A stretch of 64,000 bases of DNA, from assembly GCA_026387315.1 (NCBI GenBank), contig JAPLLY010000049.1, positions 11,883 to 75,882 on the forward strand, written 5' to 3'. Origin of the DNA: Candidatus Omnitrophota bacterium. Its GTDB lineage: Bacteria; Omnitrophota; Gorgyraeia; Gygaellales; Profunditerraquicolaceae. The position numbers and the translations under genes are program-made. Numbering within the stretch: position 1 is the first letter of the stretch; the number at the start of each line of letters is the position of its first letter. The notes beneath the pieces were generated by a model. That model did no database searches. It was not told the origin of the DNA and worked only from the letters and a program-made list of their open reading frames with translations. Positions 1,937 to 59,316 of the stretch are shown one piece after another.

Positions 1937-2422
1937 ATGGCTAAAGCAATCAGTATTCTCATGGGAAGCCAGTCGGATTTAGAAACAGTTAATGAAACGA
2001 TTAATGTCTTAGAAGAATTTAAGGTAGGTTTTGAAGTTAAGGTTTTATCCGCGCACAGAACACCTAAAGAGGTGGCCCACTATGTGGAGTCAGCTCCTCA
2101 AAGCGGAACCAAGGTTTTTATTGCTGCCGCCGGAATGTCCGCGGCTTTAGCCGGGGTAGTCGCCGCGCATACCATTTTGCCGGTAATCGGCATACCGATT
2201 GAAACTAAAAATTTAAAAGGCCTGGATTCTCTCTTATCAACCGTACAGATGCCTCCAGGGGTTCCCGTGGCTTGCATGTCTATTGGTAAGGCCGGGGCAA
2301 AGAATGCCGCGCTTTTTGCTTTGGCGATACTGGGTATCAATGATACTAAAATCAGCGTTCAGCTGGTTAATTATAAAAAAAAGATGCGCCTTAAGATCAC
2401 ACAAACTAAAATTAAACTATGA
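1937..2422 (+). CDS. purE: N5-carboxyaminoimidazole ribonucleotide mutase
   Basis: 161 aa. Carries the PurE motifs GSQSDL, SAHRTP, AAGMSAALAGVVAA and PVIGIP. SD GAGGAGG lies upstream. Confidence 0.9.
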   Translation: MAKAISILMGSQSDLETVNETINVLEEFKVGFEVKVLSAHRTPKEVAHYVESAPQSGTKVFIAAAGMSAALAGVVAAHTILPVIGIPIETKNLKGLDSLLSTVQMPPGVPVACMSIGKAGAKNAALFALAILGINDTKISVQLVNYKKKMRLKITQTKIKL

Positions 2423-3480
2423 GTTTAACCAAAATTATTAAGATTAATCCCGCAGATCCTCAAGAGGAATCTATCCGTCAGGCAGCCAAAGTTTTAATTG
2501 ATGGTGGATTAGTGATTATTCCTACTGAGACGGTTTACGGGATTGCGGCGAATGCCTTGAATAAAAAGGCGCTGGAAAGGCTTTATAAGATAAAAAACCG
2601 GCCTCAGGATAAACCTTTTTCCATTTTGATCGCCCAAGAACATCAGGCGCGGGAACTGGCTCGCGATGTTCCCGTAGTAGCCTATAAATTGATGCATAAA
2701 TTTTGGCCGGGCCCGTTAACCGTGATATTAAAATCCGCCAGCCAGGGTAAAGTGGGTTTACGCATGCCGGATGATCTAGTGGCTTTAGCGATTATTAACC
2801 AGTCGGCAGTTCCCTTGGCCTGCCCCTCCGCGAATATTTCAGGTAAGCCAGCGCCGGCTAATTTTGAGCAAGCGATTAAAGATATGGATGGTTTGGTGGA
2901 TTTAGCGATTGATGCCGGTTTGACTAAAGTTGGCTCGGAGTCTACCGTGGTTGACCTAAGCATTGAACCGCCGCAGATAACCAGGAGCGGAGCGATTAAG
3001 GATGAAGAGATCCTGGCGATAATACAATCTAAGGATGTGCTTTTTGTTTGCACGGGAAACTCCTGCCGTTCGGTGATGGCAGAGGCGTATTTAAAGAAAC
3101 TTTTGCAAAAACAGCACAGAACGGATATCCAGGTTTCCTCCGCCGGAGTGATGGCCATGGCAGGCATAGGCGCCAGTGTAGAAACGCGGGAGGTCTTGGC
3201 AAAGGAGGGTATGGATGTCGAAGGCCATCGCAGCCAAAGAGTAACCCGGGAATTAGTGAGCCAGTCAGATATTATTTTGGTGATGGAGGATGCGCATGAG
3301 GATAAAATCCTGCAGCTTGCTCCGGAGGCAAAAAATAGACTTTTTTTATTAAAGGAATTTGCTAAAATAAATGACAGTAATTTGAATATCGCTGATCCTG
3401 CCGGGAGTTCTCTAGAGTTTTATCAGGACACTTTTTTAACGATTAAAGATGCCGTAGAAAGGATAAGTAAAATATTATGA
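2419..3480 (+). CDS. tsaC: L-threonylcarbamoyladenylate synthase (YrdC/TsaC domain) fused to a low-molecular-weight protein phosphatase domain
   Basis: The N-terminal ~200 aa form a YrdC fold (PTETVYGIAANA, KNRPQDKPFSIL, WPGPLT, SANISG). The C-terminal ~150 aa carry the LMW-PTP P-loop VCTGNSCRSVMAE and DP motifs. The ATG overlaps the purE stop (ATGA). Confidence 0.85.
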   Translation: MSLTKIIKINPADPQEESIRQAAKVLIDGGLVIIPTETVYGIAANALNKKALERLYKIKNRPQDKPFSILIAQEHQARELARDVPVVAYKLMHKFWPGPLTVILKSASQGKVGLRMPDDLVALAIINQSAVPLACPSANISGKPAPANFEQAIKDMDGLVDLAIDAGLTKVGSESTVVDLSIEPPQITRSGAIKDEEILAIIQSKDVLFVCTGNSCRSVMAEAYLKKLLQKQHRTDIQVSSAGVMAMAGIGASVETREVLAKEGMDVEGHRSQRVTRELVSQSDIILVMEDAHEDKILQLAPEAKNRLFLLKEFAKINDSNLNIADPAGSSLEFYQDTFLTIKDAVERISKIL

Positions 3481-3553
3481 GTCCCGCACCTTCTAATTAT
3501 TCTACTAAAGCCATAGGGTTTAAAGAATTAAATAAGAAAGAAGGTGCGGGGTG
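3481..3553 (+). repeat. family-A inverted-repeat element (CCCGCACCTTCT ... AGAAGGTGCGGGG) carrying the rpiB SD and GTG start
   Basis: The 5' arm 3483-3494 is the perfect complement of the 3' arm 3539-3550. The tsaC TGA (3478-3480) abuts the 5' arm. The GTG start of rpiB (3551) is formed by the last G of the 3' arm. Confidence 0.8.
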
Positions 3554-4009
3554 AACAAGCTATTGATTGCTTCAGACCATGCCGGATTTGTTTTGAAAGA
3601 AAAAATAAAAGCCTATCTTCAAAAGAAGGCAATCAGCGTAAAAGATTTAGGCACTTATTCTTTAGAGCGCTGCGATTATCCGGTGTATGCTTATGAATTA
3701 GCTAAAAATATTTCTTTAGGTAAATTCAAACGTGGCATATTAATTTGTAAAAGCGGTGTTGGTACTTCGATTGTAGCCAACAGATTGCCGGGGGTACGCG
3801 CCGCGCTTTGCGATAATCTTAAGATCGCTAAGCTTAGCCGTCAGCATAATGACAGCAATGTTCTGGTTTTGGGGTCGGCATTTGTAAAAGCGGATTTAGC
3901 CAAAAGAATGGTTTCATCTTGGTTAAATACCAAGTTTTTAAGGGGTAGGCATTTAAGGAGAATAAAATTAATTAACCAGATCGATAAAAACATAGATACC
4001 CCGCGCTAA
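3551..4009 (+). CDS. rpiB: ribose-5-phosphate isomerase B
   Basis: 152 aa. The sequences IASDHAGFVLKE, ICKSGVGTSIVANR and NVLVLG are typical of RpiB/LacAB. Confidence 0.9.
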   Translation: MNKLLIASDHAGFVLKEKIKAYLQKKAISVKDLGTYSLERCDYPVYAYELAKNISLGKFKRGILICKSGVGTSIVANRLPGVRAALCDNLKIAKLSRQHNDSNVLVLGSAFVKADLAKRMVSSWLNTKFLRGRHLRRIKLINQIDKNIDTPR

Positions 4010-6341: not shown

Positions 6342-6430
6342 GGGCTAGTTGGTCCTGAAAACACCCAAGCCACCCGCTAGCTGCGCATTTTGAGTTTGCC
6401 CAGAATAAGGTGCGGAAGTAAAGGTGGGAG

Positions 6431-6465
6431 GGGGCAGTTCTTGAATGAGGGCTGCCCCTTTTTTA
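6431..6465 (+). terminator. rho-independent terminator after nrdR
   Basis: GGGGCAG-13 nt-CTGCCCC followed by TTTTTTATTT. Confidence 0.6.
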
Positions 6466-6519
6466 TTTAGTTAGATTTTGCTAGCTCTTACGTCTATTGG
6501 CAGTAGAAGGAGGAATAAA

Positions 6520-7023
6520 ATGACTGATTTGATACCTATCGAATTGATATCAACCAAGATTTTGATATTAAGAGGGAAAAGAGTAATGTTGGATAAGGAT
6601 CTTGCTAAACTTTATGCTGTGCCTACAAAGGTTCTAAATCAATCTGTAAAAAGAAATATAAGGCGCTTCCCGATTGATTTTATGTTTCAATTAACAAAGT
6701 TAGAAAAATTGGAACTGGTCACAATTTGTGACCGGTTCAGGCTTTTGAAACATTCGACTGTTGAGCCTTATGTTTTCACAGAACAGGGCGTAGCGATGTT
6801 ATCAAGTGTGTTAAATAGCGAAAGAGCCATTTTGGTGAATATCCAGATTATGCGCGCATTCACTCAATTGCGCAGAATGCTTTTAACTAATGTAGATCTC
6901 AAGCGTAAAATTGAAGAAATGGAGCGTAAATATGATAAGCAATTCTTGATTGTTTTTAAAGTTATAAAGGAGCTCTTGGAGCCTCAGCCTATCCCTAATA
7001 AACCACCAATTGGATTCCGTTAA
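6520..7023 (+). CDS. ORF6N/ORF6C (KilA-N-like) DNA-binding protein
   Basis: RGKRVMLDKDLAKLYAVPTKVLNQSVKRNIRRFPIDFMFQL and FTEQGVAMLSSVL are typical of the ORF6N domain. ATG 6520 follows GGAGGA; the track start 6478 is less likely. Confidence 0.8.
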   Translation: MTDLIPIELISTKILILRGKRVMLDKDLAKLYAVPTKVLNQSVKRNIRRFPIDFMFQLTKLEKLELVTICDRFRLLKHSTVEPYVFTEQGVAMLSSVLNSERAILVNIQIMRAFTQLRRMLLTNVDLKRKIEEMERKYDKQFLIVFKVIKELLEPQPIPNKPPIGFR

Positions 7024-7033
7024 GTCAACACAG

Positions 7034-7231
7034 ATGAATATCGGGGAACAAATAGCGCAATTAAGGCATAAGGCAAGAATGAGCCAATTGGAACTGGCTA
7101 AGAAAGTCTCTACCAGCAGAACCGCTATAGCCCGCTATGAAAGTGGAGATTACAATAGATATAACGTGGGTACTTTGGCCAGAATCGCCCGGGCTTTGCA
7201 TAAGAGACTGAAAATATCATTTTCTGCTTAG
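7034..7231 (+). CDS. XRE-family helix-turn-helix regulator (possible controller protein)
   Basis: IGEQIAQLRHKARMSQLELAKKVSTSRTAIARYESG is a classic Cro/C1 HTH. ATG 7034 is preferred over the track start 7010. Confidence 0.75.
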   Translation: MNIGEQIAQLRHKARMSQLELAKKVSTSRTAIARYESGDYNRYNVGTLARIARALHKRLKISFSA

Positions 7232-7241
7232 CTTCTCGTAA

Positions 7242-7278
7242 TTACATCTTCCACAAAATGTAAAGCCATAAATTACAT
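7242..7278. promoter_or_regulatory. three TTACAT/ATGTAA half-sites between the XRE gene and the DpnI-like gene
   Basis: TTACAT (7242-7247), ATGTAA (7258-7263) and TTACAT (7273-7278), spaced 10 and 9 nt apart. Operator-like arrangement. Confidence 0.3.
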
Positions 7279-7455
7279 TGAAACCATGTCAAAAGAGAGT
7301 AAAATAAAAGTATCAAATATAGAAGTTAAGCAGGTAAATATATGATAGATGATCTAGAGTGGTATCGTTTGAAGGGGGAACTGCCACGTAAAAATAATTA
7401 AAACATTCGCTAGGAATAGCGGAGGTTTCTTGTTTTTTGAGGAGTAATTTTATAA

Positions 7456-8226
7456 ATGAAATTGGCTTTTAATAAACAGATTGCGCAGTCATATCACAGT
7501 GTTTCTCAGAAAATTCGTGTAATGGCGGAAGATTGGGTTAGCCGCGAAATCTTTTGTCCCGCCTGTGGTTGTAACATTAAACATTACGAAAATAACAGAC
7601 CTGTTGCTGATTTCTTTTGTTTAGATTGTAAAGAAGAATTTGAGTTAAAAAGTAAAAAGGATTCTATTGGTAACAAAATTGTAGATGGCGCGTATAGAAC
7701 GATGATTGAGCGGCTGCAAAGTAATAATAATCCTAATTTTTTCTTTCTAAATTATCACCTAAGAAGTTTTGAGGCCATAAATTTTTTCGTTATACCAAAG
7801 CATTTTTTTGTACCGCAGATAATTGAGAAAAGAAAACCTCTCGCTTTATCGGCAAGAAGAGCCGGTTGGATTGGATGTAATATTCTTCTGCAAAGAATCC
7901 CAGTTTCAGGAAGAATATTTTTGGTTAAGAACGCCCATGTTGAGTCGAAACAAAAAGTTCTTCGGGATTGGAAAAAGACCTTATTTTTAAGAGAAGAAAA
8001 AGATATAAAATCAAAAGGTTGGATTATTGATGTAATGAATTGTATCGAGCAGTTGGCCAAAAAAGAATTTACTCTTGATGAAGTTTATAATTTTGAAGCT
8101 GTTTTGCAGACCAAACACCAGAGCAATAGGCATATTAAAGACAAAATCCGCCAGCAGTTGCAGGTGCTTAGAGATAAAGGTTATTTGGAATTCGTTAGAA
8201 AAGGGCAATATAGAGTAATAAAGTAG
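7456..8226 (+). CDS. DpnI-like methyl-directed type IIM restriction endonuclease
   Basis: 256 aa. Long collinear matches to DpnI as I remember it: YCPxCG...NRPVADFxCxxCxEEFELKSKK, DGAYxTMxxRxQxxNNPNFFFL, RKPLAxxARRAGWIGCNI, GRIFLV, and a C-terminal winged helix HIKxKIRQQLQxLRDK. Confidence 0.85.
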   Translation: MKLAFNKQIAQSYHSVSQKIRVMAEDWVSREIFCPACGCNIKHYENNRPVADFFCLDCKEEFELKSKKDSIGNKIVDGAYRTMIERLQSNNNPNFFFLNYHLRSFEAINFFVIPKHFFVPQIIEKRKPLALSARRAGWIGCNILLQRIPVSGRIFLVKNAHVESKQKVLRDWKKTLFLREEKDIKSKGWIIDVMNCIEQLAKKEFTLDEVYNFEAVLQTKHQSNRHIKDKIRQQLQVLRDKGYLEFVRKGQYRVIK

Positions 8227-8241
8227 ATTAAGGAATTAATT

Positions 8242-8484
8242 ATGAATTTAGCTTTAAAAATACCCGCGTTTAGCGTGAAATTATTTTTGTGGTTGTCTCT
8301 TCCATTCAGTGATGATAATTTCGTGGTGGTTTGTAAAGGATACGGTGACGATTGGGATTATTATACCGGTTTATATTGGTATGAGGATAAAGATTTGGAA
8401 ACATGCTGGTATGAGGATTATCAAATTTGGTTATCCATAAATAAATCTTTTATCAAGAAATATTTATGGACGAAAATAAAGTAA
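8242..8484 (+). CDS. hypothetical W/Y/D-rich small protein
   Basis: 80-aa ORF 16 nt after the DpnI-like stop. No recognisable family. It occupies the position that dpnD holds in the pneumococcal DpnI cassette. Confidence 0.4.
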   Translation: MNLALKIPAFSVKLFLWLSLPFSDDNFVVVCKGYGDDWDYYTGLYWYEDKDLETCWYEDYQIWLSINKSFIKKYLWTKIK

Positions 8485-8564
8485 ATAAAAAAATATTATG
8501 TAATGAAAATGCGTTATTACCGCCATTGCTTAGCAATTTTATAGACTAGAGGGAAAGGGAAATT

Positions 8565-8726
8565 ATGGAAGATATTATTTGTCCTAAATGTAACGATGTG
8601 ATTAGGCCTGATAATGATTGGGATTTTATGGATGGTGAAAAACGTAAAATATCTTGTTTTTGTGGGCATAAATTCGTAGTTATTATCGAGCGGCCGATTG
8701 AATACTATATACTAGAGTCGGCATAG
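8565..8726 (+). CDS. 53-aa zinc-ribbon protein (not in the ORF track, below the size cut-off)
   Basis: ATG preceded by GGGAAAGGGA. Translation MEDIICPKCNDV...ISCFCGHKFVVIIERPIEYYILESA has CxxC...CxC. A paralogous 3' fragment lies at 9704-9779. Confidence 0.45.
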   Translation: MEDIICPKCNDVIRPDNDWDFMDGEKRKISCFCGHKFVVIIERPIEYYILESA

Positions 8727-8801
8727 TAGAAAGCTTTGTCTGTAAATTTTTAAAAATAGAAACGTTCAGAATTTAAATCTAAGTCTCTGAGAGGTAATAC
8801 A

Positions 8802-9668
8802 ATGTCATTTTCAGAAAACATTAAATTACAAGTAAAAGAAAAAGCTGCTTTTCGTTGTTGTAGGTGTCAGAATATAGGCATAGATGTTCATCATATTACT
8901 CCAGAAAAAGATGACGGACTCGATGATATTAGTAATGCAGCTCCTTTATGTCAGAATTGCCATGATCAATTTGGCGACAATCCTTCGAAACGAAAAGAGA
9001 TGGTTCAGATGAGGGATTGGTGGTATAAAAAATGCGAAATCAAATATTCAGCGCAGGATGTTATGTTGATGAGAGAAATGGTTTCAAAATTGGAAGAGAT
9101 TAAACATGGTAGCCAATCAGGAATTAATGAGTTAAAGCAAATTTTGAGAAATATACACAACAAAACTACTGATAAAGTAATTGATAAGCTATCTCGAGAA
9201 ACTGCTGATGCTACTGCTTCTGCAATAGTAAATAGCATTGATGCGATAGAACTTAGTCAGAAGCCATTCTTCTACGTTTATTACCTAGAAGAAGATTATT
9301 CATATCAAACTTCCATGAAAGGTAGAAACTTTAAAAATAAATGGTTTACATTGGAAGAAGATGGAAAAATGACAATAAAAAAAGGCTATGTATGGGATGG
9401 GTGCCCTCCAAAATATAAGATACGTGATCTTTATATCGGATTACAAGAAGGCTGTATAAATTTTGAAACAGGGAAAAGCAAAACTTATTATGCGTCTTTA
9501 GTTCACGATGTCTTTTATCAATTTAGCGTAGACATTAGATCGCTTGTTAGCCGTGGGGATGTCGACTACGAATTTTATTTACTGCTAAAGAGAGATAAAT
9601 TTACTTTCGCAGCACTTTATTACTTTAACGTACGATTATTTGGCTGGGTATGGTGGAATAGGAATTAA
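8802..9668 (+). CDS. HNH endonuclease fused to a C-terminal domain resembling DUF1353
   Basis: The N-terminus CCRCQNIGIDVHHITPEKDDGLDDISNAAPLCQNCHDQF is an HNH motif. The C-terminal GYVWDGCPP...SLVHDVFYQ resembles DUF1353; that assignment is tentative. Confidence 0.8.
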   Translation: MSFSENIKLQVKEKAAFRCCRCQNIGIDVHHITPEKDDGLDDISNAAPLCQNCHDQFGDNPSKRKEMVQMRDWWYKKCEIKYSAQDVMLMREMVSKLEEIKHGSQSGINELKQILRNIHNKTTDKVIDKLSRETADATASAIVNSIDAIELSQKPFFYVYYLEEDYSYQTSMKGRNFKNKWFTLEEDGKMTIKKGYVWDGCPPKYKIRDLYIGLQEGCINFETGKSKTYYASLVHDVFYQFSVDIRSLVSRGDVDYEFYLLLKRDKFTFAALYYFNVRLFGWVWWNRN

Positions 9669-9703
9669 GTATAGTGTTCCCTAATTTCCCTGATTTCAAA
9701 GTA

Positions 9704-9779
9704 ACTTGTTCCTGTGTGACATCAATTCTTAGTTATCATAGAGAGGCCGATTGAGTATTACGTGTCAGAGGCAAATTAG
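9704..9779 (+). pseudogene. frameshifted 3' remnant of a paralog of the 8565-8726 zinc-ribbon gene
   Basis: It reads ..TCSC then, after a 1-nt shift, HQFLVIIERPIEYYVSEAN*. The intact copy reads SCFCGHKFVVIIERPIEYYILESA*. Confidence 0.5.
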
Positions 9780-9856
9780 AAAAAAATAACGGTTGTTTTT
9801 TTTTGCATGCAGCGGCCGGAATCGCTGTGTAGGAAAGAATTGTTTTAGTAATTTGC

Positions 9857-10069
9857 GTGGAGACAAAAATGAAGATAAATAAATGTACGGAATGCGGGGG
9901 CGAAGACTTTTTTATTGAAGAAATGATTATTCATAAAGCTTCTCTTTATGCAGAAGATAAAGAATTGACCGTTTACAAAGAACAGACGTCCGGAATAGAA
10001 AGAATATATTGCACAAATTGTGATACAGAGTATTCGGAAGACGATTTTAAAAAAATAAATTTCAGATAG
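9857..10069 (+). CDS. small zinc-ribbon protein
   Basis: KCTECGG ... YCTNCD pairs of cysteines. An ATG at 9869 after GGAG is an alternative start. Confidence 0.5.
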   Translation: METKMKINKCTECGGEDFFIEEMIIHKASLYAEDKELTVYKEQTSGIERIYCTNCDTEYSEDDFKKINFR

Positions 10070-10129: not shown

Positions 10130-10440
10130 GAACTAAGTAATGAGCGTCCGCTGAATGAATCGGGATAAGTCAGATAAGCAGACGCTTTCGCGCGCCAAGA
10201 TAAGCTCTTTGTAATCTAGCTGATTGAGATGTATCAGCCACAGCAATTTCCTGTTTAGCTGTGTAGCCTGGAGTGAGGATAAAGGAGCAATCCTTAAGCC
10301 TAAGCCACTCAACAAACCCGCCTTGCAAACCCGCCTTGGGCGGGGAGGCAAATCAGCAGACCGTAATGTGAATGAACCCGGATGTAGCCTCGTCACTCTA
10401 ATAAGTAGAGATGACCTCTTGAAAGTGGAGGGAAATCTAA
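10130..10440. other. GC-richer non-coding block with multiple short hairpins (candidate structured RNA or decayed gene)
   Basis: Hairpins seen: GCTGAT-8-ATCAGC, CACAGC-12-GCTGTG, CCCGCC-TTG-GGCGGG. Tandem AAACCCGCCTTG x2 (10314-10339). The only ORFs are low-complexity and overlap on both strands. Confidence 0.2.
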
Positions 10441-19306: not shown

Positions 19307-19321
19307 CGGTGATAAAAACCA

Positions 19322-19444
19322 GGGGACGGTTCTATTCTTTCTTGATCTACCTGTGTAGACCTACGCGGTCTACATATATGTAGAAGACCGCGTAGGTCTA
19401 CGTGGTTCGCGAGAATGACGGTATTAAAAAATAGAACCGCCCCC
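19322..19444. repeat. family-B hairpin split by a nested 47-nt palindrome
   Basis: Outer arms are GGGGACGGTTCTATT (19322-19336) and AATAGAACCGCCCC (19430-19444). The inner 17-bp stem is GTAGACCTACGCGGTCT (19355-19371) with AGACCGCGTAGGTCTAC (19385-19401) around TACATATATGTA. Confidence 0.75.
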
Positions 19445-19463
19445 GTGATTCTAAAGCAGGGGG

Positions 19464-25005: not shown

Positions 25006-25074
25006 GGGGACGGTTCTACTTTTCAGAAACAAAGGGGACGGTTCTATTTTTTACAAAAAAATAGAACCGTCCCC
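25006..25074. repeat. family-B half copy plus a full hairpin in a divergent intergenic region
   Basis: Half copy GGGGACGGTTCTAC (25006-25019). Full hairpin GGGGACGGTTCTATTTTTT-AC-AAAAAAATAGAACCGTCCCC (25034-25074). Confidence 0.7.
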
Positions 25075-27499: not shown

Positions 27500-27539
27500 G
27501 GGGACGGTTCTATTTTTTTCGAAAAATAGAACCGTCCCC
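27500..27539. terminator. family-B hairpin after spoVG
   Basis: GGGGACGGTTCTATTTTT-TTCG-AAAAATAGAACCGTCCCC. Confidence 0.6.
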
Positions 27540-27552
27540 TAGATTTCCAATA

Positions 27553-27729
27553 TGAACCCAGCATCTTCTAATTATTCATCATTCTTTAAAGCAATAAGAT
27601 TTAAGAGAATAAGTATAAGCAGAATACTGAATACGATAGAAGGTGCTGGGTGAACCCCGCACCTTCTAGATATTCCATTATTAAAGCCATATGGTTTAAT
27701 GAATTAAATAAAAAAGAAGGTGCGGGGTG
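27553..27729 (+). repeat. two tandem family-A elements ending on the aroK GTG
   Basis: Copy a has arms 27557-27569 and 27638-27650, the variant CCCAGCATCTTCT/AGAAGGTGCTGGG. Copy b has arms 27655-27667 and 27715-27727. TGAA sits at 27553, 27651 and 27728. Confidence 0.8.
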
Positions 27730-28248
27730 AATATTTATCTTATTGGATTCATGGGTACTGGTAAGACTTCTGTTGGCCGCCAGTTGGCTAAAGAGAAGGA
27801 ATGGAATTTTATCGATTTGGATGAGCTGATAGAATTAAAACAACAGCGCAGGATTGTGGATATTTTTGCTCAGGAGGGTGAGCCGTATTTTCGTAAAATT
27901 GAGAAAAAATTCTTAAGGCAGGTTTGCTCTCAGAAAAAATTCGTAGTGGCTTGCGGCGGGGGAGTAGTTTTAGATCCGGACAATATCAAGCTGATGAAGA
28001 AAACCGGGATTTTAATCTGTCTTTGCGCTGCCGGCGAGGTGATTTTAAAAAGAGTCTCTACCAGCGCGTCGCGCCCGATTTTAAATGTTGCCAAGCCCCG
28101 GGAGCGTATAGAACTTTTGCTAAAAATGCGCGCGCCTTATTATATACAAGCGGATAAAACAATTGATACCTCCAAACTTTCGATAAAAGAGGCGGTAACT
28201 AAGATTATTAAAATAGTTTCTTCTGGGGCCGTAAGTAGAAAAAGGTAG
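27727..28248 (+). CDS. aroK: shikimate kinase
   Basis: IYLIGFMGTGKTSVGR Walker A, and GGGVV. Confidence 0.9.
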   Translation: MNIYLIGFMGTGKTSVGRQLAKEKEWNFIDLDELIELKQQRRIVDIFAQEGEPYFRKIEKKFLRQVCSQKKFVVACGGGVVLDPDNIKLMKKTGILICLCAAGEVILKRVSTSASRPILNVAKPRERIELLLKMRAPYYIQADKTIDTSKLSIKEAVTKIIKIVSSGAVSRKR

Positions 28249-28262
28249 AATAACAGGAAAAA

Positions 28263-29354
28263 ATGACTGAACTTGAAGCATTTGTAGGGTTAAACCTTAT
28301 TTCTAATATTGGCAGCGTAAGGCTAAGCAAGTTACTGGAAGTTTTTGGCAAGCCACAAGAAATATTTAGCGCGAAGTATGAACATTTGGCTTCTATTTTT
28401 GGGATAGGGAGCCAAATCGCGTCTGGCATTGTTTCTTTTAAAAAAGAGAATATAGAAAAAGAACTTTTTTCTTCTGAGAAACTGGGTATTAAAATTCTTA
28501 CCTTAAACGATAAGGATTATCCGGAAAATTTAAGGCAGATTCCCGGGGCGCCGATTGTGCTTTATGTTTTAGGCAGTATAATCGCGCAGGATAACTTAGC
28601 GATTGGTATTGTGGGTTCGCGCCGCGCCTCATTTTACGGTTTAAGCAACGCAGAAATTTTTGCCTCTCAATTATGTGCCCAAGGCATAACCATTGTTTCC
28701 GGGATGGCCCGTGGGGTGGATACTTACGCGCATCGTGGAGCCTTAAAAGCCAAGGGGCGCACTATCGCGGTAATGGGCAGCGGTTTTAGCCATATTTATC
28801 CGGCGGAGAACGCGGATTTAGCCAAAGATATTGCTCTATCCGGAGCAGTAATTTCGGAATTTCCCATGGAAACAAAACCCTTGCCGGGAAATTTTCCCCG
28901 GCGTAATCGCTTAATTAGTGGTTTAAGTTTAGGTGTTTTAATCACCGAAGCAGCCAGGAATAGCGGGGCTTTAATTACCGCGGATTTTGCTTTGGAACAA
29001 GGCAGGGAGGTTTTTGCTTTACCCGGCAGGATAGATTCGGTTGGCTCAATGGGAGCTAATGCCTTGCTTAAACAAGGAGCAAAAATAGTTACTTGTTGTG
29101 ATGATATTCTTGAGGAATTGAATTTAGCTGCGTCAAACATGAAAAAAATAGAACCTGAGGTAAAAAAGCAAGAAATTGCCTACGGAAAAGAAGAAAGCCG
29201 GCTTTATGAACACATAACCCAGCATCCGGTAGCCATAGATGATTTAGTGCAGAAGTCATCGTTCAGCAGCAGCCAGGTCTTGAGTTTAATTTTAAAATTA
29301 CAGTTTAAGAAACTAATTAAAGCATTGCCGGGAAAACAATTTATCAGAAATTAA
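28263..29354 (+). CDS. dprA: DNA processing protein DprA
   Basis: GSRRAS.YG, SGMARGVDTYAHRGAL, FPRRNRLISGLS. Confidence 0.9.
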   Translation: MTELEAFVGLNLISNIGSVRLSKLLEVFGKPQEIFSAKYEHLASIFGIGSQIASGIVSFKKENIEKELFSSEKLGIKILTLNDKDYPENLRQIPGAPIVLYVLGSIIAQDNLAIGIVGSRRASFYGLSNAEIFASQLCAQGITIVSGMARGVDTYAHRGALKAKGRTIAVMGSGFSHIYPAENADLAKDIALSGAVISEFPMETKPLPGNFPRRNRLISGLSLGVLITEAARNSGALITADFALEQGREVFALPGRIDSVGSMGANALLKQGAKIVTCCDDILEELNLAASNMKKIEPEVKKQEIAYGKEESRLYEHITQHPVAIDDLVQKSSFSSSQVLSLILKLQFKKLIKALPGKQFIRN

Positions 29355-29412
29355 ATACCCAATTCCGACACCGGGAGTCGGAATTGGGTATTATGTAAAA
29401 AGGGAGATAAAG

Positions 29413-29979
29413 ATGGATATTCGGATTAATAAAGAAAAGGGCTGTATTGAAGCAATTTTTTATTATCGGGATTATCATCACAAATTAGGTTTTTTACTTT
29501 CTATTTTTCTACTTATTTTTGGTTTGCCGTTTTTAATTGATGGAATCCGTCATCATGCATTTGGCACTACTTCTTTTTTCTTAATGCTCTTATCGCCTTT
29601 CTTTTTAGGTTTATTATGGGCTATCATTGGAAAGCAAAAATTATTTATTTCTCAAGACAAGATTGAGATGAGTGAACTCATAGGAAATTTTGTTTATCGT
29701 AAAAAGACTTTCTCAACAAGCGAAATTGAGAGTATGCATCTTCATTGCGGTGTTGTGCATGATTGTAGAGAGGAAACAGAAGAGGTTGTTTTTGAAGGTT
29801 TAGTTTTTACTATAAGAGGCGGCAAACAACTGAAACCTTTTAATTATCTTAATAAAGCAGATTCACGATATTTACAAGAAGAGATAAAAAGTTTTCTAAA
29901 CTTAACAATATCTGTTAATTGTTCTTGTGCGAATCTAAAAATACCCCATTCCGACTCCCGGTGTCGGAATGGGGTATAA
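29413..29979 (+). CDS. hypothetical 2-TM membrane protein
   Basis: 188 aa with two hydrophobic helices. The last 12 codons (IPHSDSRCRNGV) are a translation of REP2. Confidence 0.45.
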   Translation: MDIRINKEKGCIEAIFYYRDYHHKLGFLLSIFLLIFGLPFLIDGIRHHAFGTTSFFLMLLSPFFLGLLWAIIGKQKLFISQDKIEMSELIGNFVYRKKTFSTSEIESMHLHCGVVHDCREETEEVVFEGLVFTIRGGKQLKPFNYLNKADSRYLQEEIKSFLNLTISVNCSCANLKIPHSDSRCRNGV

Positions 29980-39029: not shown

Positions 39030-39205
39030 ATAAGCTTTCCGGCTTTTGCTTCCGGCACGAAGATTTTCGCCGTGTGCGGCGGTTTACGTCTCGCTACGGC
39101 GTGTTCCTTACGCTAAAAAGACATCGCCTACGCTCGACGTAATTCCTTGCACACAACTGGCGAAAATCTTCTAATTGTGCCTCCAGCAAAAGCCGGAAAG
39201 CTTAT
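39030..39205. repeat. 176-nt long inverted repeat (element X1)
   Basis: Perfect 20-bp termini ATAAGCTTTCCGGCTTTTGC (39030-39049) and GCAAAAGCCGGAAAGCTTAT (39186-39205). A further perfect 13 bp: GAAGATTTTCGCC (39059-39071) with GGCGAAAATCTTC (39159-39171). Confidence 0.7.
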
Positions 39206-42482: not shown

Positions 42483-42544
42483 AAAACAGGGGACGGTTCT
42501 CTTAAAAAAAGAGAACCGTCCCCGCGATTTAAGAAAGAAGGCGC
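42483..42544 (+). repeat. 62-nt unit (family-B hairpin plus a family-A 3' arm variant), copy 1
   Basis: Identical to 44686-44747. Contains GGGGACGGTTCTC-TTAAAAAAA-GAGAACCGTCCCC (42489-42523) and AAGAAAGAAGGCGC. Confidence 0.85.
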
Positions 42545-42547
42545 GGG

Positions 42548-44650
42548 GTGAAAATACTTCAGATATTACCTGAGTTGAATGTCGGGGGAGTAGAGACCGG
42601 TACACTGGATCTTTCCAAGCATTTGGTACGCCTGGGGCATAAATCGGTAGTGGTTTCTGCCGGCGGAGCTTTGGTTGAAGAGCTAAAGACAGACGGCGCT
42701 AAACATTACACCTTGGCGGTAAATAAAAAATCCATTATTTCAATGTTTAAATTAATTCCGATGTTGGTTGAAATAATTAATAAGGAAGAGATTGACATCG
42801 TGCATGCCCGCTCAAGGGTGCCGGCCTGGATTGCTTATTTTGCCTGCCGCCGCAGTCGGGCAATATTTGTCACTACCTGTCATGGCTATTATAAAAAACA
42901 TTTTTTTAGCGTAGTTATGGGTTGGGCAAAAAGAGTGATTGTCTTAAGCAATGTGATTGCCAGGCATATGATCGAAGATTTTTCCCTGCCCCATGAACGC
43001 ATTAAGCTTGTGCCGCGCAGCGTAGACCTGGGAAAATTTAAATACTTGGATCCTAAAACCAAAAGAAAAGAGGATTTTAATGTCGGAATTATCGGCAGGA
43101 TTACTCCTTTAAAGGGGCACTTGCATTTTATCAAAGCGATGGCGCGTATTTACAGGTTGGTTCCCCGTTTAAAGATTTGGATTGTCGGAGATGCCCCAGT
43201 TTCTAAGGAAGCGTATAAGGAGGAACTGCAGATTTTAGTGCGTAGGCTTGGGCTATGGCATTGCACGGAGTTTCTGGGTACGCAGCGGGATATTCCCGGA
43301 ATATTGGAACATCTGGATTTAGTGGTTTTAGCTACGACTACTCAGGAAGCCTTCGGCAGGGTAGTGATTGAGGCGCAAGCTGCGGGTGTTCCGGTGGTAG
43401 CGACTAAAGTCGGAGGGGTGATTGATATTATCGAGGATGGCAAAAATGGCCTTTTAGTGCCTCCGGCGGATGCTAAAAGTATGGCCGAGGCCGTTATGCG
43501 TATTTTTAAGGATACGCAATTTGCCAGGGAGTTAGCAGAAAATGCTTATATTAAAGTTAAAGAAAAATATAATGTGGAGTTGATGGTTAAGAATACTTTA
43601 GATGTTTATCGGGAAGCCTTAAATAATTTTAAGATCCTGGTGATTAAACTTAGCTCTTTAGGGGATGTGATTCTTTCTACGGCCTCACTCAGGGCAATCC
43701 GGGAAAAATTTCCGTCAGGGGCCCAAGGTAATTACAAAATAAGTTTTCTTGTTGGTGAGGAGTCTAAAGATATCCTCTTGAGAAGCCCGTATATTGATGA
43801 GTTGCTGGTTTGCGATTTAAAAAATAAAGATAAGGGCCTGGCGGGTTTATGGGGAGTTGGCCGTATTTTAAGGAAAAAGAATTTTGACCTGGTTATTGAC
43901 CTGCAGAACAGCCGCGCCAGCCATATCTTAGCCGCCTTGAGCGGTTGTATTCATCGTTATGGTTATAATAATAAGAAATTTTCTTTCCTGCTTAATCATG
44001 CTATCTGTGACCAGAAATCGCCAGTTGACCCGGTGACTCACCAATTTAGAGTCTTAAAGATGTTGGGAATTGACCTGTTAAATAATGCCTTGGAGCTTTG
44101 GCCCTCTAGTGAAGATGAAAAAGCGGTGGATGAGCTCCTGAATGCCCAGTGGCTAAGCCAGGCGCAGAAGGTGGTGGGAATTAATATTAGCGCGTCTAAA
44201 AGGTGGAGCACTAAGTTTTGGCCGTTGGAATATTTGATTTGCCTCTGCGAAGAACTGGGATTAAAAGATATTCGCGTAATTATCACCGGAACGCAAGAGG
44301 ATCAAGCGCTGGCGGGCAGGTTGATTAATTCCTTAAAAAATACCAAGGTTATCAATGCCTGCGGTAAAACTAGTATTAACGAATTAGCCGTGTTAATTAA
44401 AAAATGCCAGGTTTTTATTTCCGCGGATTCTTCGCCTTTGCACATTGCTTCCGCGGTTGGCACTCCGTTTATTGCTTTATTCGGCCCGACTGACGCGCGC
44501 CGGCATTTGCCGCCCGGAAAAGATTATATTGTGCTTAATAAAGAGTTGCAGTGTAGCCCTTGTTATAAAACTAAATGCCGCACTAAGCGCTGCATGGCGC
44601 AGATTAGCCCCGCGGAAGTGTTTGAGGCGGTAATGAAGTTACTTAAGTGA
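42548..44650 (+). CDS. GT4 glycosyltransferase fused to a GT9 (heptosyltransferase-family) domain
   Basis: N-terminal half: GGVETGTLDL, EAFGRVVIEAQAAGVPVVATKVGG (GT4 EX7E region). C-terminal half: KLSSLGDVILST, GINISASKRWSTKFWP, DSSPLHIASAVGTP (GT9). Confidence 0.85.
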   Translation: MKILQILPELNVGGVETGTLDLSKHLVRLGHKSVVVSAGGALVEELKTDGAKHYTLAVNKKSIISMFKLIPMLVEIINKEEIDIVHARSRVPAWIAYFACRRSRAIFVTTCHGYYKKHFFSVVMGWAKRVIVLSNVIARHMIEDFSLPHERIKLVPRSVDLGKFKYLDPKTKRKEDFNVGIIGRITPLKGHLHFIKAMARIYRLVPRLKIWIVGDAPVSKEAYKEELQILVRRLGLWHCTEFLGTQRDIPGILEHLDLVVLATTTQEAFGRVVIEAQAAGVPVVATKVGGVIDIIEDGKNGLLVPPADAKSMAEAVMRIFKDTQFARELAENAYIKVKEKYNVELMVKNTLDVYREALNNFKILVIKLSSLGDVILSTASLRAIREKFPSGAQGNYKISFLVGEESKDILLRSPYIDELLVCDLKNKDKGLAGLWGVGRILRKKNFDLVIDLQNSRASHILAALSGCIHRYGYNNKKFSFLLNHAICDQKSPVDPVTHQFRVLKMLGIDLLNNALELWPSSEDEKAVDELLNAQWLSQAQKVVGINISASKRWSTKFWPLEYLICLCEELGLKDIRVIITGTQEDQALAGRLINSLKNTKVINACGKTSINELAVLIKKCQVFISADSSPLHIASAVGTPFIALFGPTDARRHLPPGKDYIVLNKELQCSPCYKTKCRTKRCMAQISPAEVFEAVMKLLK

Positions 44651-44685: not shown

Positions 44686-44747
44686 AAAACAGGGGACGGT
44701 TCTCTTAAAAAAAGAGAACCGTCCCCGCGATTTAAGAAAGAAGGCGC
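44686..44747 (+). repeat. 62-nt unit, copy 2
   Basis: Nucleotide-identical to 42483-42544 by direct comparison. Confidence 0.85.
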
Positions 44748-44755
44748 AAAAGGGG

Positions 44756-44833
44756 TGAGCCCCGCACCTTCTTATTATTCAAGCATTAAAGGCTTATGGT
44801 TTAAATGAATTAATAATAGGAAGGTGCGGGGTG
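44756..44833 (+). repeat. family-A element ending on the GT4 GTG start
   Basis: Arms at 44760-44772 and 44818-44831. Flanking TGAG at 44756 and 44832. Confidence 0.8.
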
Positions 44834-45931
44834 AGGGTACTTTTTATCGCTAATCATCTTAATGTGGGAGGCATATCCAGCTATCTGTTGACTTTAGCCG
44901 GCGGATTAAAACAAAAAGGCCATCAGGTTTATCTGGTTTCCGGAGGCGGAGAATTAGAGGATAAATTTATCCAGGCAGGGGTAACGCTTTTGAAGGCGCC
45001 CCTGAAAACCAAGAATGAGATTAGCCCCAAGATTATTTTTAGTTTTTGGAAATTAAGAAAAGCAGCCCGAAAATTTAATATCGATTTAATTCATTCGCAT
45101 AGCCGTACGACGCAAGTCTTGGGGGATTTATTGAGCCGTTCTTTAGCTAAGCCGCATATATTTAGCTGCCATGGTTTTTTTAAGCCAAGATTATCACGCC
45201 GGTTATTTCCTTGTTGGGGGCAAAAAGTAATCGCGGTCAGCCAGCAGGTCAAGGAGCATCTCATTTGTGATTTTAAACTTGATGCGCAAAAGATCAGTGT
45301 AATCCATAACGGCATAGATACTAAAAATTTTGGAGATTTTTCGTCCAGGGATAATACGCGCGCGGAGTTAGGTGTGCCGGCTGATTTTTTAGTGGGTATT
45401 ATTGCCCGTTTATCCGAGGTTAAAGGCCACATTTATCTTATCCAGGCAATGCTGGAAGTTATAAAAAATTTTCCCAACGCTAAGTTGTTGATTGTTGGCC
45501 AGGGTAAAACCAGGGGAGCGTTGATTAAAGAAACCCAAGATTTAGGGTTAGAGAGTAGTATCATATTTATTCCGGAAACCAAAAATACTAAACACCTTCT
45601 GGCGGCCATGGATATTTTTGTTATGCCTTCATTACAGGAGGGTTTAGGGTTAGCTTTGATGGAGGCCATGGCCCAGGGAGTGGCTGTAGTGGGTTGCGCC
45701 GTAGGCGGAATCAAGACCCTGATTCAGGATAAAGTGAATGGTTTATTAGCCGCTCCGGCTGACGCGCCGGCTCTGGCGCGGGCAATTATTACTTTGCTTG
45801 GTGATTCCGGGCTGCGCCGAGCTTTAGGCGCCCGGGCTCGTGAATTTATCATGGCTAATTTTTCTCAAGAAGAAATGGTGGATAAAACGGAAAAAGTTTA
45901 TCAGCAGTCTCTAAAGACACCCGGCGCTTAG
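44831..45931 (+). CDS. GT4-family glycosyltransferase
   Basis: GGISSYLLTLA, EGLGLALMEAMAQGVAVVGCAVGG. Confidence 0.85.
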   Translation: MRVLFIANHLNVGGISSYLLTLAGGLKQKGHQVYLVSGGGELEDKFIQAGVTLLKAPLKTKNEISPKIIFSFWKLRKAARKFNIDLIHSHSRTTQVLGDLLSRSLAKPHIFSCHGFFKPRLSRRLFPCWGQKVIAVSQQVKEHLICDFKLDAQKISVIHNGIDTKNFGDFSSRDNTRAELGVPADFLVGIIARLSEVKGHIYLIQAMLEVIKNFPNAKLLIVGQGKTRGALIKETQDLGLESSIIFIPETKNTKHLLAAMDIFVMPSLQEGLGLALMEAMAQGVAVVGCAVGGIKTLIQDKVNGLLAAPADAPALARAIITLLGDSGLRRALGARAREFIMANFSQEEMVDKTEKVYQQSLKTPGA

Positions 45932-51318: not shown

Positions 51319-51368
51319 GGGGACGGTTCTGTTTTTTTTATTATAATAAAAAAAACAGAACCGTCCCC
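51319..51368. terminator. family-B hairpin with a long A/T extension
   Basis: GGGGACGGTTCTGTTTTTTTT-ATTATAAT-AAAAAAAACAGAACCGTCCCC. Confidence 0.6.
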
Positions 51369-51498: not shown

Positions 51499-52428
51499 AT
51501 GTTTAACTTAAAGAAAATAAAAAGATATTCGATTAAAGAGCGCGCCAGCAAGGTGGATAAAGGGGATTTCGCGCTTAAGCCGGTTAAAGCTAGAAGCTTT
51601 TGCGATTTTTTGGATTCTTTACCCAATATTTTAAAAGCCAAAGACTTACGCGCGGTTTCCGCGGATATTGTCGCGGCGCGCAAGAAAAATAAAGGGGTAA
51701 TCTTGATGGCCGGGGCGCATGTCATTAAATGCGGGCTTAGCCCGGTATTAATTGAGCTGCTGGAAAAAAAAATAATTACTTGCATTTGCCTAAATGGCGC
51801 CGGGATCATCCATGATTTTGAGATTGCTTACCAGGGAAAAACTTCCGAAGACGTCGCGGCTAATCTTAAAGACGGCAAGTTTGGCATGGGCAAGGAGACC
51901 GCGGATTTTCTAAACTTCGCGGTTAAGGAAGGTGTCCAAGCGGGTTTTGGGTTAGGTTATGCTGTGGCTAATAAGCTGGCTGCTGCCGCGCTGGCGCACA
52001 AAGAATTAAGTCTGATCTATAATGCTTATATACGTAAGGTACCGGTCTGTGTTTTCATTGGAATTGGCACGGATATCATTCATCAGCATCGATCCTTCGA
52101 CGCCGCTTCGACTGCCGTGGGTTCGTTGCGGGATTTTCATATTTTGGTAGAAAACATCCGTTCTTTAAATCAGGGAGGGGTGGCGCTAAATTTTGGTTCG
52201 GCGGTGTTATTGCCGGAGGTATTTTTAAAGGCTTTAAATCTTGCCCGGAATTTAGGAAATAAGGTTAAAAATTTTACTTCCGCTAATTTTGATATGCTTT
52301 ATCAGTATCGAGCGGCGCAGAATGTGGTCAGCCGGCCCACTGCTTCCGGGGGTAAAGGCTATTATGTTATCGGCCACCATGAGATCATGCTCCCGCTTTT
52401 AGCGCAAAGCGTAATTGAGAAGATATGA
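51499..52428 (+). CDS. conserved hypothetical protein, weak deoxyhypusine-synthase-like pattern
   Basis: 309-aa clean ORF. GAHVIKCGLSPVLIELLEKKIITCICLNGAGIIHDFE resembles the DHS-family core. That assignment is tentative. Confidence 0.4.
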   Translation: MFNLKKIKRYSIKERASKVDKGDFALKPVKARSFCDFLDSLPNILKAKDLRAVSADIVAARKKNKGVILMAGAHVIKCGLSPVLIELLEKKIITCICLNGAGIIHDFEIAYQGKTSEDVAANLKDGKFGMGKETADFLNFAVKEGVQAGFGLGYAVANKLAAAALAHKELSLIYNAYIRKVPVCVFIGIGTDIIHQHRSFDAASTAVGSLRDFHILVENIRSLNQGGVALNFGSAVLLPEVFLKALNLARNLGNKVKNFTSANFDMLYQYRAAQNVVSRPTASGGKGYYVIGHHEIMLPLLAQSVIEKI

Positions 52429-52502
52429 CCCCGCACCTTCATTGTGTTTAGACATAGAAGGCGTAGGGTTAAAATTAATGAATAAAAAGAAGGTGCGGGG
52501 TG
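52426..52502 (+). repeat. family-A element between the upstream TGA and the heptose-kinase GTG
   Basis: TGA|CCCCGCACCTTC (52426-52440) ... AGAAGGTGCGGGG|TGA (52488-52503). Confidence 0.8.
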
Positions 52503-54265: not shown

Positions 54266-55078
54266 ATGCATCAGGTTAATCTGGGAAAGATAAAATTTGG
54301 CCAGGGGTATCCGTTGGTTTTGATCGCCGGGCCATGCGCTATTGAATCAGAAAGTTCCTGCCTGGCGGCAGCCGCGAAGATCAAAGATATTGCGGCCAGC
54401 TTAGATATACCGTTTATATTTAAATCTAGTTTTGATAAAGCTAACCGGCTTTCCGTAGATTCTTATCGTGGGCCGGGATTAAAGAAAGGGCTGGCGATTT
54501 TAAAGAAAGTAAAAGCTAAGCTCAGGGTTCCAGTTTTAAGTGATGTGCATTGTGTCCAAGATATTCCCGCGGCGGCGCAAGTACTGGATATTATTCAGAT
54601 ACCGGCATTTTTATGCCGTCAGACCGATATGGTCTTAGCTGCCGCCAGGACCGGTAAGGTAATAAATATTAAAAAAGGCCAGTTTCTCGCGCCCTGGGAT
54701 ATTCTGCCTATAATTAAGAAGGTTCAGAGTGTGGGTAATAAACGAATTTTGATCACCGAAAGAGGGGTAAGTTTTGGGTACAATAATTTAGTTACGGATT
54801 TGCGCGGCTTAGGAATTATGCGGCAATTTGGGTATCCGGTAATTTATGACGCTACGCATAGTGTGCAGCTTCCCGGCGGTTTAGGCGCTTGCTCAGGAGG
54901 CCAGACGGAATTTGTCGCCGGGTTATCCCGGGCAGCGGTGGCTTTTGGCTGCGATGGTTTATTTTTAGAGGTGCACCCTGATCCGAAAAATGCGCCTTGC
55001 GATGGTCCGAATATGATTAATTTTAAAGAACTGGAAGGCCTCTTAAAGCAAATAAAAAAGATTAGGCAGGCGCTATGA
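54266..55078 (+). CDS. kdsA: 3-deoxy-8-phosphooctulonate synthase
   Basis: LIAGPCAIES, FKSSFDKANR, IPAFLCRQTD, DATHSVQLPGG. Confidence 0.95.
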   Translation: MHQVNLGKIKFGQGYPLVLIAGPCAIESESSCLAAAAKIKDIAASLDIPFIFKSSFDKANRLSVDSYRGPGLKKGLAILKKVKAKLRVPVLSDVHCVQDIPAAAQVLDIIQIPAFLCRQTDMVLAAARTGKVINIKKGQFLAPWDILPIIKKVQSVGNKRILITERGVSFGYNNLVTDLRGLGIMRQFGYPVIYDATHSVQLPGGLGACSGGQTEFVAGLSRAAVAFGCDGLFLEVHPDPKNAPCDGPNMINFKELEGLLKQIKKIRQAL

Positions 55079-59310: not shown

Positions 59311-59316
59311 TGAATT

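Follow-up and report, generated by a model that had tools for sequence, protein, structure and literature searches.

A family of short inverted-repeat elements was found at the starts of seven genes in a 64,000-nt stretch of a Candidatus Omnitrophota genome (hereafter the window; GenBank assembly GCA_026387315.1, contig JAPLLY010000049.1, positions 11,883 to 75,882 of the forward strand). It is a mobile inverted-repeat element, which duplicates TGAA within gene starts reading A-TGAA (the hyphen marks the insertion point) and supplies the gene with a Shine-Dalgarno sequence (SD) and a start codon. The basis for this is a repeat family with terminal inverted repeats (TIRs), direct-repeat flanks, empty and filled orthologous sites, the positions of the gene starts, a reading-frame bias, and stacking of copies. 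The element is very probably non-autonomous and similar to MITEs (miniature inverted-repeat transposable elements), inserting in A-TGAA starts, duplicating TGAA, and bringing an SD and start whose translation is coupled to a mini open reading frame (mini-ORF).

Element family in the window and in related genomes

The 3′ arm AGAAGGTGCGGGG matched the window 19 times at up to two mismatches, where 1.29 matches were expected and 0 of 100 shuffled sequences reached 19. A covariance model built from related copies detected seven complete copies (starting at 3477, 27552, 27650, 44755, 52425, 55075, and 59394), all of which scored higher on the gene-sense strand, and lone 3′ arms were located at 42536 and 59488 with further remnants at 59317 and 59350. 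The element is 62–123 nt long, its sole coding content is a mini-ORF of at most 40 codons, and its TIRs of 13–14 nt (CCCCGCACCTTCT ... AGAAGGTGCGGGG) were paired in 71 of 71 aligned copies. The initial annotation had stated that the motif ends on the predicted starts of seven genes with complementary 5′ arms 45–70 nt upstream, which agreed with the ORF starts: GTG for rpiB (3551), aroK (27727), GT4-GT9 (42548), GT4 (44831), kinase (52500), and tig (59500), and ATG for kdsD (55173). The six 5′ arms that it listed were all present, and a seventh with one mismatch was found at 59399–59411. Also real were the upstream TGA codons abutting the 5′ arm (ORFs ending at 3480, 52428, and 55078), the TGA(N) flanking repeats of the window copies, and the native ATGA overlaps at 560, 2419, 12513, 16874, and 47004. 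By Pfam, the served genes encode RpiB, shikimate kinase, a GT4+GT9 fusion, GT4, a PfkB-family kinase, a KdsD-like protein (SIS+CBS), and Trigger_N.

Related copies were collected by scanning one genome per species with the pattern CCCGCACCTTC-N40-70-GAAGGTGCGGG, and loci from such genomes are denoted by L-numbers. This two-arm pattern occurred in at least 109 stretches and approximately 44 species-level genomes among the matches listed, and ~870 kb of related DNA contained 138 arm pairs. Nearly all of the matching metagenome-assembled genomes (MAGs) are labeled Candidatus Omnitrophota, or else Planctomycetes/Phycisphaerae (PVC group), and originate from groundwater, lakes, marine water, peat, and deep mines. 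Matches in Nocardioides, an actinomycete, and a Saccharibacteria MAG were discarded as chance hits, which lacked the flanks and lay in GC-rich or coding DNA. The anatomy of the element was counted for 104 oriented copies from among the matches listed.

Insertion at start codons with target-site duplication

The 104 copies gave the consensus A-TGAA-[C/T]CCCGCACCTTCT...AGAAGGTGCGGG[G/A]-TGAA, of which the terminal [G/A]TG opens an ORF that is at least 100 aa long or is cut by the locus end in 89 copies, so the placement beside start codons seen initially in the window holds across the related genomes. The exceptions with short ORFs are mostly real small genes, such as rpmJ (four MAGs), rpmC, and rpsF. 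The terminal base pair covaries (C..G in 64 copies, T..A in 26, C..A in 8, and T..G in 5), and the copies that supply an ATG bear T at their 5′ end. Matched flanks were observed for TGAA/TGAA in 67 copies, for TGAG/TGAG in five of eight, and for TGGA/TGGA in three of five; a TGAA left flank is almost never accompanied by a right flank other than TGAA, and never by TGAG (Fisher p = 7e-7). The flank identity proposed from the window copies therefore persists in the larger sample with its two sides covarying, which is the hallmark of a duplicated target site, here gene positions 2–5. A 3-nt TGA duplication occurs in a minority of copies, including that before the kinase gene of the window.

The base preceding the left TGAA is A in 79 of the 104 copies, and an SD-like tetramer is located upstream of the left ATG in 56–68% of copies, compared with 16% of random positions and 56% of native starts in the window. 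This left ATG looks like the old native start of the gene. The flanks otherwise exhibit no sequence preference, except for a purine-rich patch 11–14 nt upstream. Only 34 of the 104 copies abut a long upstream ORF, indicating that the target is the start codon and not specifically a stop/start overlap. One of the two options offered by the initial annotation was a MITE-like element whose insertion duplicates TGA at ATGA stop/start overlaps and is tolerated since it rebuilds the SD and start. Each of the tests suggested with this option supported it, though two of its details are amended: the duplication is usually four nucleotides (TGAA) and at times three, and the target is the A-TGAA start-codon context, not the overlap. 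Inverted rather than direct flanks, with a longer palindrome and no adjoining start codon, were seen at L019 2332–2399, L087 1491–1572, and L098 3048–3130, which may represent a different subfamily or insertion mode.

Empty and filled orthologous sites

Orthologous sites with and without the element were found for several window genes. For GT4-GT9, L086 is empty (...GGGTATT-ATGAATATATTACAA) and has a native ATGA stop/start overlap, L101 and L007 are filled, and the window carries the 3′ half only. For the kinase gene, L045 is empty (GAAAATAT-ATGAAGAGC), and the window, L031, and L050 are filled. The kdsD site carries a copy in the window and in L093, only a 3′ remnant in L050, and no element in L031, whose protein is 92% identical. 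At tig, the empty site of L093 has an SD of its own (AAGAAAGGGATCAA-ATGAAAACC), and the window and L050 read GTGAAAACC. The empty sites read ...ATGAA..., and their ATG aligns in every case with the GTG/ATG of the element, which confirms the start positions; position 1 of the Trigger_N profile also falls on residue 1 of the predicted protein. The initial annotation had suggested looking in relatives for empty sites with ATGA/GTGA overlaps; sites with native ATGA overlaps do exist there, with an ATG exactly at the position of the GTG. Between L031 and the L045/L093 contig, which share 85% DNA identity, the alignment breaks exactly at the element borders.

The copies before kdsD in the window (102-nt type) and in L093 (72-nt type) have unrelated interiors, and the window copy resembles the other 102-nt copy of the same window. 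Two copies of L007 are 94% alike, whereas same-site copies across species are only ~70% alike. These comparisons point to sites that were hit repeatedly, or to copies that were homogenized within a genome. Degenerate 3′ arms are located directly before the left ATG/GTG in L007, L028, L045, L078, L098, and at 44726 of the window, and tandem or stacked units occur at 27552–27730 and 59311–59503 of the window and in L086. The 27552/27650 pair and the tig leader both consist of a decayed older copy upstream and a younger copy at the gene. Such stacking arises because the element recreates the [G/A]TGAA target at its own 3′ end. Decay is asymmetric: lone 3′ arms persist as the ribosome-binding site (RBS) and start of genes, and hardly any 5′ arms occur alone.

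Copies in the window

All of the window copies lie on the plus strand. The copy before rpiB (3477–3554; 5′ arm 3482–3494, 3′ arm 3539–3551) has a predicted folding energy of −30.8 kcal/mol and scores 77.9 bits. Its mini-ORF runs from ATG (3477) to TGA (3552–3554) and encodes MSPAPSNYSTKAIGFKELNKKEGAG, with the rpiB GTG at 3551. The left TGA of this copy (3478–3480) is the stop codon of the Sua5/LMWPc gene (2419–3480), and the orthologous site is filled in L025. Upstream of aroK, the older copy of the stack is of the 102-nt type (27552–27653; arms 27557–27569 and 27638–27650; −32.9 kcal/mol), belongs to the same subfamily as the 55075 copy, and holds an intact 33-codon mini-ORF. The compensatory pair and the G-T wobble that had been reported for its arms were both seen, and the compensatory change falls on synonymous sites of the mini-ORF frame (CCC to CCA, GCG to GCT). 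The copy directly before aroK (27650–27730; arms 27655–27667 and 27715–27727; −37.6 kcal/mol) gives the top window score of 86.2 bits, has TGAA in common with the preceding copy, and contains a 26-codon mini-ORF starting from GTG (27650), with the aroK GTG at 27727.

GT4-GT9 is preceded by a lone 3′ half (GCGATTTAAGAAAGAAGGCGCGGGGTGA; 42523–42550), which gives the SD and GTG (42548); the 5′ half is missing, and a hairpin of a second family (family B, described below) lies directly upstream. The GT4 gene exhibits a stacked insertion, in which the GTGA of a degenerate older 3′-arm remnant (GCGATTTAAGAAAGAAGGCGCAAAAGGGGTGA; 44726–44758) is the target of the next, complete copy (44755–44834; arms 44760–44772 and 44819–44831; flanks TGAG/TGAG). 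The pairing of this copy runs to 31 nt (−48.7 kcal/mol), its mini-ORF is broken by a stop at codon 18, and the gene starts with GTG at 44831; the orthologous sites are filled in L045, L007, L101, and L086. In the copy before the PfkB-family (heptose) kinase gene (52425–52503; arms 52429–52441 and 52488–52500; −30.9 kcal/mol; GTG 52500), the left junction is one base short (ATGA-CCCCGC), leading to a TGA duplication and a mini-ORF broken by being out of frame. The 102-nt-type copy before kdsD (55075–55176; arms 55080–55092 and 55161–55173; −36.7 kcal/mol) is complete with an intact 33-codon mini-ORF (MNPAPSDYSSFFKALSFKEINISRILNTKEGAG), and its final arm base is A, which makes the kdsD start at 55173 an ATG.

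The tig leader begins with older-copy remnants (59311–59365), composed of two 3′-arm-like segments at 59317–59329 and 59350–59362. They are followed by a complete copy (59394–59475; arms 59399–59411, with the one mismatch, and 59460–59472; 64.4 bits), whose left ATG has decayed to AAG, and by an extra tandem 3′ half (ATTGAATAAGAAAGAAGGTGCGGGGTGA; 59476–59503), which gives the SD and GTG (59500) of tig and whose last arm is unpaired in the predicted fold. Many element interiors hold a degenerate internal copy of the 3′ arm (AGAAGGYGYRGGGTT), as at 52455–52470 and 59317–59329 of the window, which may be left over from stacked insertions or may offer the 5′ arm another pairing partner. The trigger factor gene itself is split into a Trigger_N ORF (59500–59967) and an overlapping Trigger_C ORF (59952–60326) with no PPIase domain, and only its first 110 residues are covered by the alignments with the L093 and L050 orthologues.

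Hairpin and mini-ORF

The window copies are predicted to form RNA hairpins of −31 to −49 kcal/mol (z-scores −2.3 to −6.7) that bury AGAAGG and the first base of the start codon, in line with the initial suggestion that the SD and start can be locked in a stem. Changes in the arms were counted in 21 copies that were not selected for perfect arms (14 further model matches and the window copies; the L102 row, which is out of register, was excluded), where the changed pairs comprised 11 compensatory doubles, 12 wobbles, and 15 breaks. Examples of the doubles are CACGCACC/GGTGCGTG in L025, CCAGCCCCTCCT/AGGAGGGGCTGG in L024, and CCCGCCCTTTCT/AGAAAGGGCAGGG in L078. The 11 doubles indicate that complementarity of the arms is maintained, which could take place at the RNA level, in DNA during mobilization, or through co-evolving subfamily ends. 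Native SDs of the window are of the GGAGG type, and AGAAGG of the element is a weaker SD, which fits a reliance on coupling. No Rfam family reached its gathering score on the element.

The element usually carries a mini-ORF. The initial annotation overlooked these mini-ORFs, though four of its six listed copies hold intact ones. These are frame-0 mini-ORFs of 25–33 codons (MNPAPS...KEGAG and a stop) at 3477–3554, 27552–27653, 27650–27730, and 55075–55176, the other two frames of which are full of stops. In all four, the ATG/GTG of the mini-ORF overlaps the upstream TGA, and its own TGA overlaps the downstream GTG/ATG. Among the 104 copies, 60 belong to the length class having this TGA/start overlap (p = 4e-7), and the lengths peak at 68, 71, and 74. 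Within the class, 35 of the 60 copies have an open frame 0, compared with 9.8 ± 2.9 for shuffled interiors (at most 21 in any of 2000 shuffles) and with 4 and 0 copies for the remaining frames. The element interiors are otherwise poorly conserved, and together with the frame bias this indicates a constraint on translatability, not on the peptide.

Proposed mechanism and alternative explanations

A mechanism of hairpin opening and re-initiation, which we infer from the sequence, is the likely means by which the insertion is tolerated, and the other option of the initial annotation, an RBS-sequestering or translational-coupling device, would be compatible in this role. The element targets the first gene bases A-TGAA (also TGAG and TGGA) and duplicates four, at times three, bases. 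The original SD and ATG would then stay on the left and open the mini-ORF (ATG AAC CCC GCA CCT TCT...) into the element, and the last base of the element (G or A) plus the duplicated TG makes a new GTG or ATG for the gene, with AGAAGG, 6 nt before it, as the new SD. In the favored length class the mini-ORF stops at a TGA overlapping this new start (GTGA or ATGA). The arms are predicted to enclose this SD and start in a hairpin with a folding energy of about −25 kcal/mol or lower. Ribosomes that arrive from the native start, or that terminate at an upstream gene with an overlapping end, would translate the 5′ arm (mini-ORF codons 3–6) and melt the hairpin, after which they would re-initiate, or initiation would be allowed, at the new start, so that expression remains coupled to the original translation signals. 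In frame-broken copies, the ribosomes would stop in the AT-rich loop with the 3′ arm still freed. New copies land before old ones at the recreated [G/A]TGAA, and the displaced copies decay.

Several points weigh against this account. Searches of the window and of ~870 kb of related DNA found no autonomous element or transposase with matching ends. Of 14 TG-type left flanks other than TGAA, six are not matched on the right, where five copies have TGAA and one has an unrelated 4-mer, and such mismatches could also fit a mechanism in which the element brings its own TGAA. The mini-ORF is intact in only 33 of the 104 copies, or approximately one-third, and termination-reinitiation thus cannot be needed everywhere. 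Most related copies were found by a pattern demanding perfect arms, and the arm conservation across species is therefore partly an ascertainment effect. Finally, the stem begins only 5 nt beyond the left ATG and should impede initiation at this codon too, except where it is opened by upstream ribosomes or co-transcriptional binding.

The search for a partner covered arm pairs 0.5–3.5 kb apart, which gave two candidates only, both by chance, and an all-against-all blastn of the loci, which showed synteny only and no IS-like or long repeats. Among the candidate autonomous partners, L061 proved to be an unrelated actinomycete locus, and L066 4269–6563 consisted of chance matches inside mnmE and folC. 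As for the ends of the element, a resemblance of GAAGGTGCG to the IS5 terminal repeat was rejected as mechanistically meaningful, its orientation being opposite relative to the element ends. Origins from Tn3-type (GGGG ends) and IS3-type (TG..CA ends) elements were also rejected on end sequence, and an origin from an IS1380/piggyBac-like element, with CC ends and a 4–5-bp duplication, is a possible lead.

The missing partner would also suit a non-DDE route of hairpin movement, namely REP/REPIN- or IS200/IS605-like HUH (RAYT/TnpA) insertion 3′ of TGAA, for which the element would bring its own TGAA, or microhomology-mediated template switching between TGAA sites. Such a route would suit an element that is one long hairpin with arms kept complementary through compensatory changes, and a right flank that is almost always the consensus TGAA when the flanks disagree. 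We nevertheless consider it unlikely, since the matched TGAG/TGAG and TGGA/TGGA flanks (8 of 13 such left flanks) are predicted by a true duplication and not by an element-borne tetranucleotide, and mutation of the left copy, which is unconstrained, accounts for the mismatches. REP/REPIN sequences are characterized by the lack of target duplication and by a linked RAYT gene, whereas covarying duplications are present here, and no transposase, RAYT-, or TnpA-like gene was seen among the window ORFs checked (10 ORFs in the second Pfam scan).

A further alternative is a host cis-regulatory device kept by selection, in which a hairpin-gated RBS and leader mini-ORF depend on upstream translation or a shared trans-acting factor, and mobility is merely the origin. 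It would account for copies before the same gene across species at 60–85% protein identity (GT4, rpiB, rpmJ, and kinase), for arm pairing kept via double changes, for an in-frame mini-ORF kept above chance, and for copies at ribosomal-protein and lipopolysaccharide (LPS) genes. We regard it as quite improbable, because kdsD, tig, and the kinase gene are without the element in close relatives (85% DNA identity) with nothing else changed, lone 3′ arms show that the 5′ arm is dispensable, the interiors are not conserved, the shared-site occupancy is partly re-insertion, and the related loci were selected for perfect arms. The served genes are functionally unrelated, and the sites are polymorphic between close relatives, which differs from described cis-regulatory RNAs and leader-peptide attenuators.

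The same arms also occur where they cannot serve as an RBS. A Moraniibacteriota MAG (JAPLXF01) contains hairpins of 63–66 nt with the arms CCCGCACCTTCC/GGAAGGTGCGGG, which lie in frame inside long ORFs (L005 1559–1621, L011 1243–1305, and L026 94–159), encode PAPS...GRCG, and have TAAA-like flanks. The host ORF in L026 is lepA/EF4, whose residues 28–53 form an insertion relative to the solved EF4 structures. This argues that the arm sequence belongs to the mobility of the element rather than to host regulation, and the shared arms hint at a broader element superfamily.

A small-peptide gene family (MNPAPS...KEGAG) with the inverted repeat as a by-product is highly implausible: frame 0 is indeed open far above the shuffles and the other two frames, with conserved N- and C-terminal residues, but only 33 of the 104 copies are intact, residue conservation coincides exactly with the codons of the complementary arm pair, the arm changes are compensatory at the nucleotide level including synonymous sites (27552 copy), and the interior peptide varies freely in sequence and length. 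Two further readings were dropped, an integron attC-like site for its lack of cassette organization and an RNA thermometer for stems that are far too stable.

Other features of the window

The second hairpin family (family B; GGGGACGGTTCT...AGAACCGTCCCC) has perfect 15–25-nt stems, is located mostly just after genes (25034–25074, 27500–27539, 42489–42523, 44692–44726, 48012–48062, 51319–51368, 61075–61109, and ~19313–19453), and has a terminator- or REP-like look. At 42489–42543 and 44692–44746, a family-B hairpin plus GCGATTTAAGAAAGAAGGCGC forms a near-identical duplicate of ~55 nt before the two neighboring glycosyltransferase genes, and this arrangement points to a terminator-plus-RBS module that was duplicated or converted locally. 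A match to the group II intron D1-D4 RNA family (66 bits) was obtained at 10220–10371, with no reverse-transcriptase ORF beside it and a PLD-like ORF next. The stretch ~6400–10000 is low in GC (33–39%) and includes ORF6N, DpnI-like, and HNH-endonuclease ORFs, and it probably represents an islet for restriction or defense that was acquired. Related ATACCC(C)A(A)TTCCGAC hairpins at 29354–29392 and 29941–29977 bracket the ORF 29413–29979, a pair of 29-nt repeats with a 118-nt spacer lies at 39030–39205, and palindromes of the TAAGCTGTAAG type occur at 1850–1899 and 62300–62335. Among the related loci, L066 2468–4045 (minus strand) holds a GTP cyclohydrolase I-like ORF of 525 aa with an apparent intein-like insert.

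Implications

Approximately one-quarter of the ATG(A/G)(A/G)-type starts of the window are, by our estimate, occupied. Of its 11 GTG starts, 6 come from the element. This affects gene calling, as GTG starts are created and small ORFs are spurious or missed, and also the inference of native RBS usage in an uncultured phylum and views on the evolution of initiation regions. If the hairpin gate is functional, it would link the expression of many unrelated genes. More speculatively, and with little confidence, insertion might be aimed mechanistically at translation starts, not merely filtered by selection, and a uniform hairpin-gated SD and GTG module might over time have taken the place of native initiation regions in a large share of Omnitrophota genes, ribosomal-protein, LPS, and chaperone genes among them, giving one factor a handle over hundreds of genes, with a related lineage having taken the in-frame route in candidate-phyla-radiation bacteria. 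Upstream translation, a helicase, an RNA-binding protein, or temperature would then be candidate tuning factors.

Comparison with known systems

The small, multi-copy, transposase-free nature of the element, its TIRs and flanking duplication, and its presence or absence at orthologous sites are those of MITEs. Bacterial MITEs (Correia/NEMIS, ERIC, RUP, and Nezha) resemble it in size, TIRs, target-site duplication, lack of transposase, and copy number, as well as in a long RNA hairpin, co-transcription with neighbors, and empty/filled polymorphism. These families land in intergenic DNA (e.g., TA) and can add promoters, terminators, and RNase III sites. None of them is known to split a start codon and replace the SD and start. 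Literature searches covering Omnitrophota repeats and start-codon or coupling MITEs returned no description of the present family.

The Moraniibacteriota relatives, which lie in frame within genes such as lepA, are similar to Rickettsia palindromic elements, whereas the Omnitrophota copies are not fused into the protein but precede it, with a mini-ORF of their own that ends at the new start codon. Rickettsia palindromic elements and other in-frame repeats are mobile palindromic sequences that survive by being translated without breaking the host frame (PMC3184786). A functional analogy is also found in the synthetic bicistronic design, in which a short leader ORF with a stop overlapping the start provides translational coupling (PMC12548453). 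In both this −4-overlap arrangement and the element, a short ORF holds the downstream SD and ends in ATGA/GTGA, and ribosomes unfold the local structure. The element differs in being a self-propagating repeat that unfolds its own terminal hairpin, and its cassette is a natural counterpart of the synthetic design.

The initial annotation recognized no described family with such behavior. This does not hold for mycobacterial interspersed repetitive units (MIRUs), the closest precedent, which are described as mobile repeats inserting at start codons, with an internal ORF coupled to the gene through a −4 overlap, tetranucleotide direct repeats, imperfect inverted repeats, and empty and filled sites (PMC12548453, PMC3184786). 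The element shares with them short dispersed repeats in operons (40–100 bp in MIRU), tandem units, the lack of a known transposase, start-codon insertion, an internal ORF with a 4-nt overlap onto the downstream start, tetranucleotide repeats, and empty/filled sites. MIRUs were reportedly described by Supply et al. in 1997. The Omnitrophota element differs in phylum and base composition (hosts of ~42% GC), in a near-perfect 13–14-nt inverted repeat that pairs the new SD and start into a strong hairpin, in itself contributing the SD along with the first start-codon base, in an ORF kept in only about one-third of copies, and in its occurrence in at least 44 species-level genomes compared with one genus. 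Common descent with MIRUs is unlikely because the hosts are Omnitrophota of ~42% GC, and the element is classed here as an analogue, not a member. It is a widespread new family of a known sort, both MIRU-like and MITE-like, and provides, after MIRUs, a second, independent, and much more widespread case of a mobile element that survives in start codons with its own translation signals.

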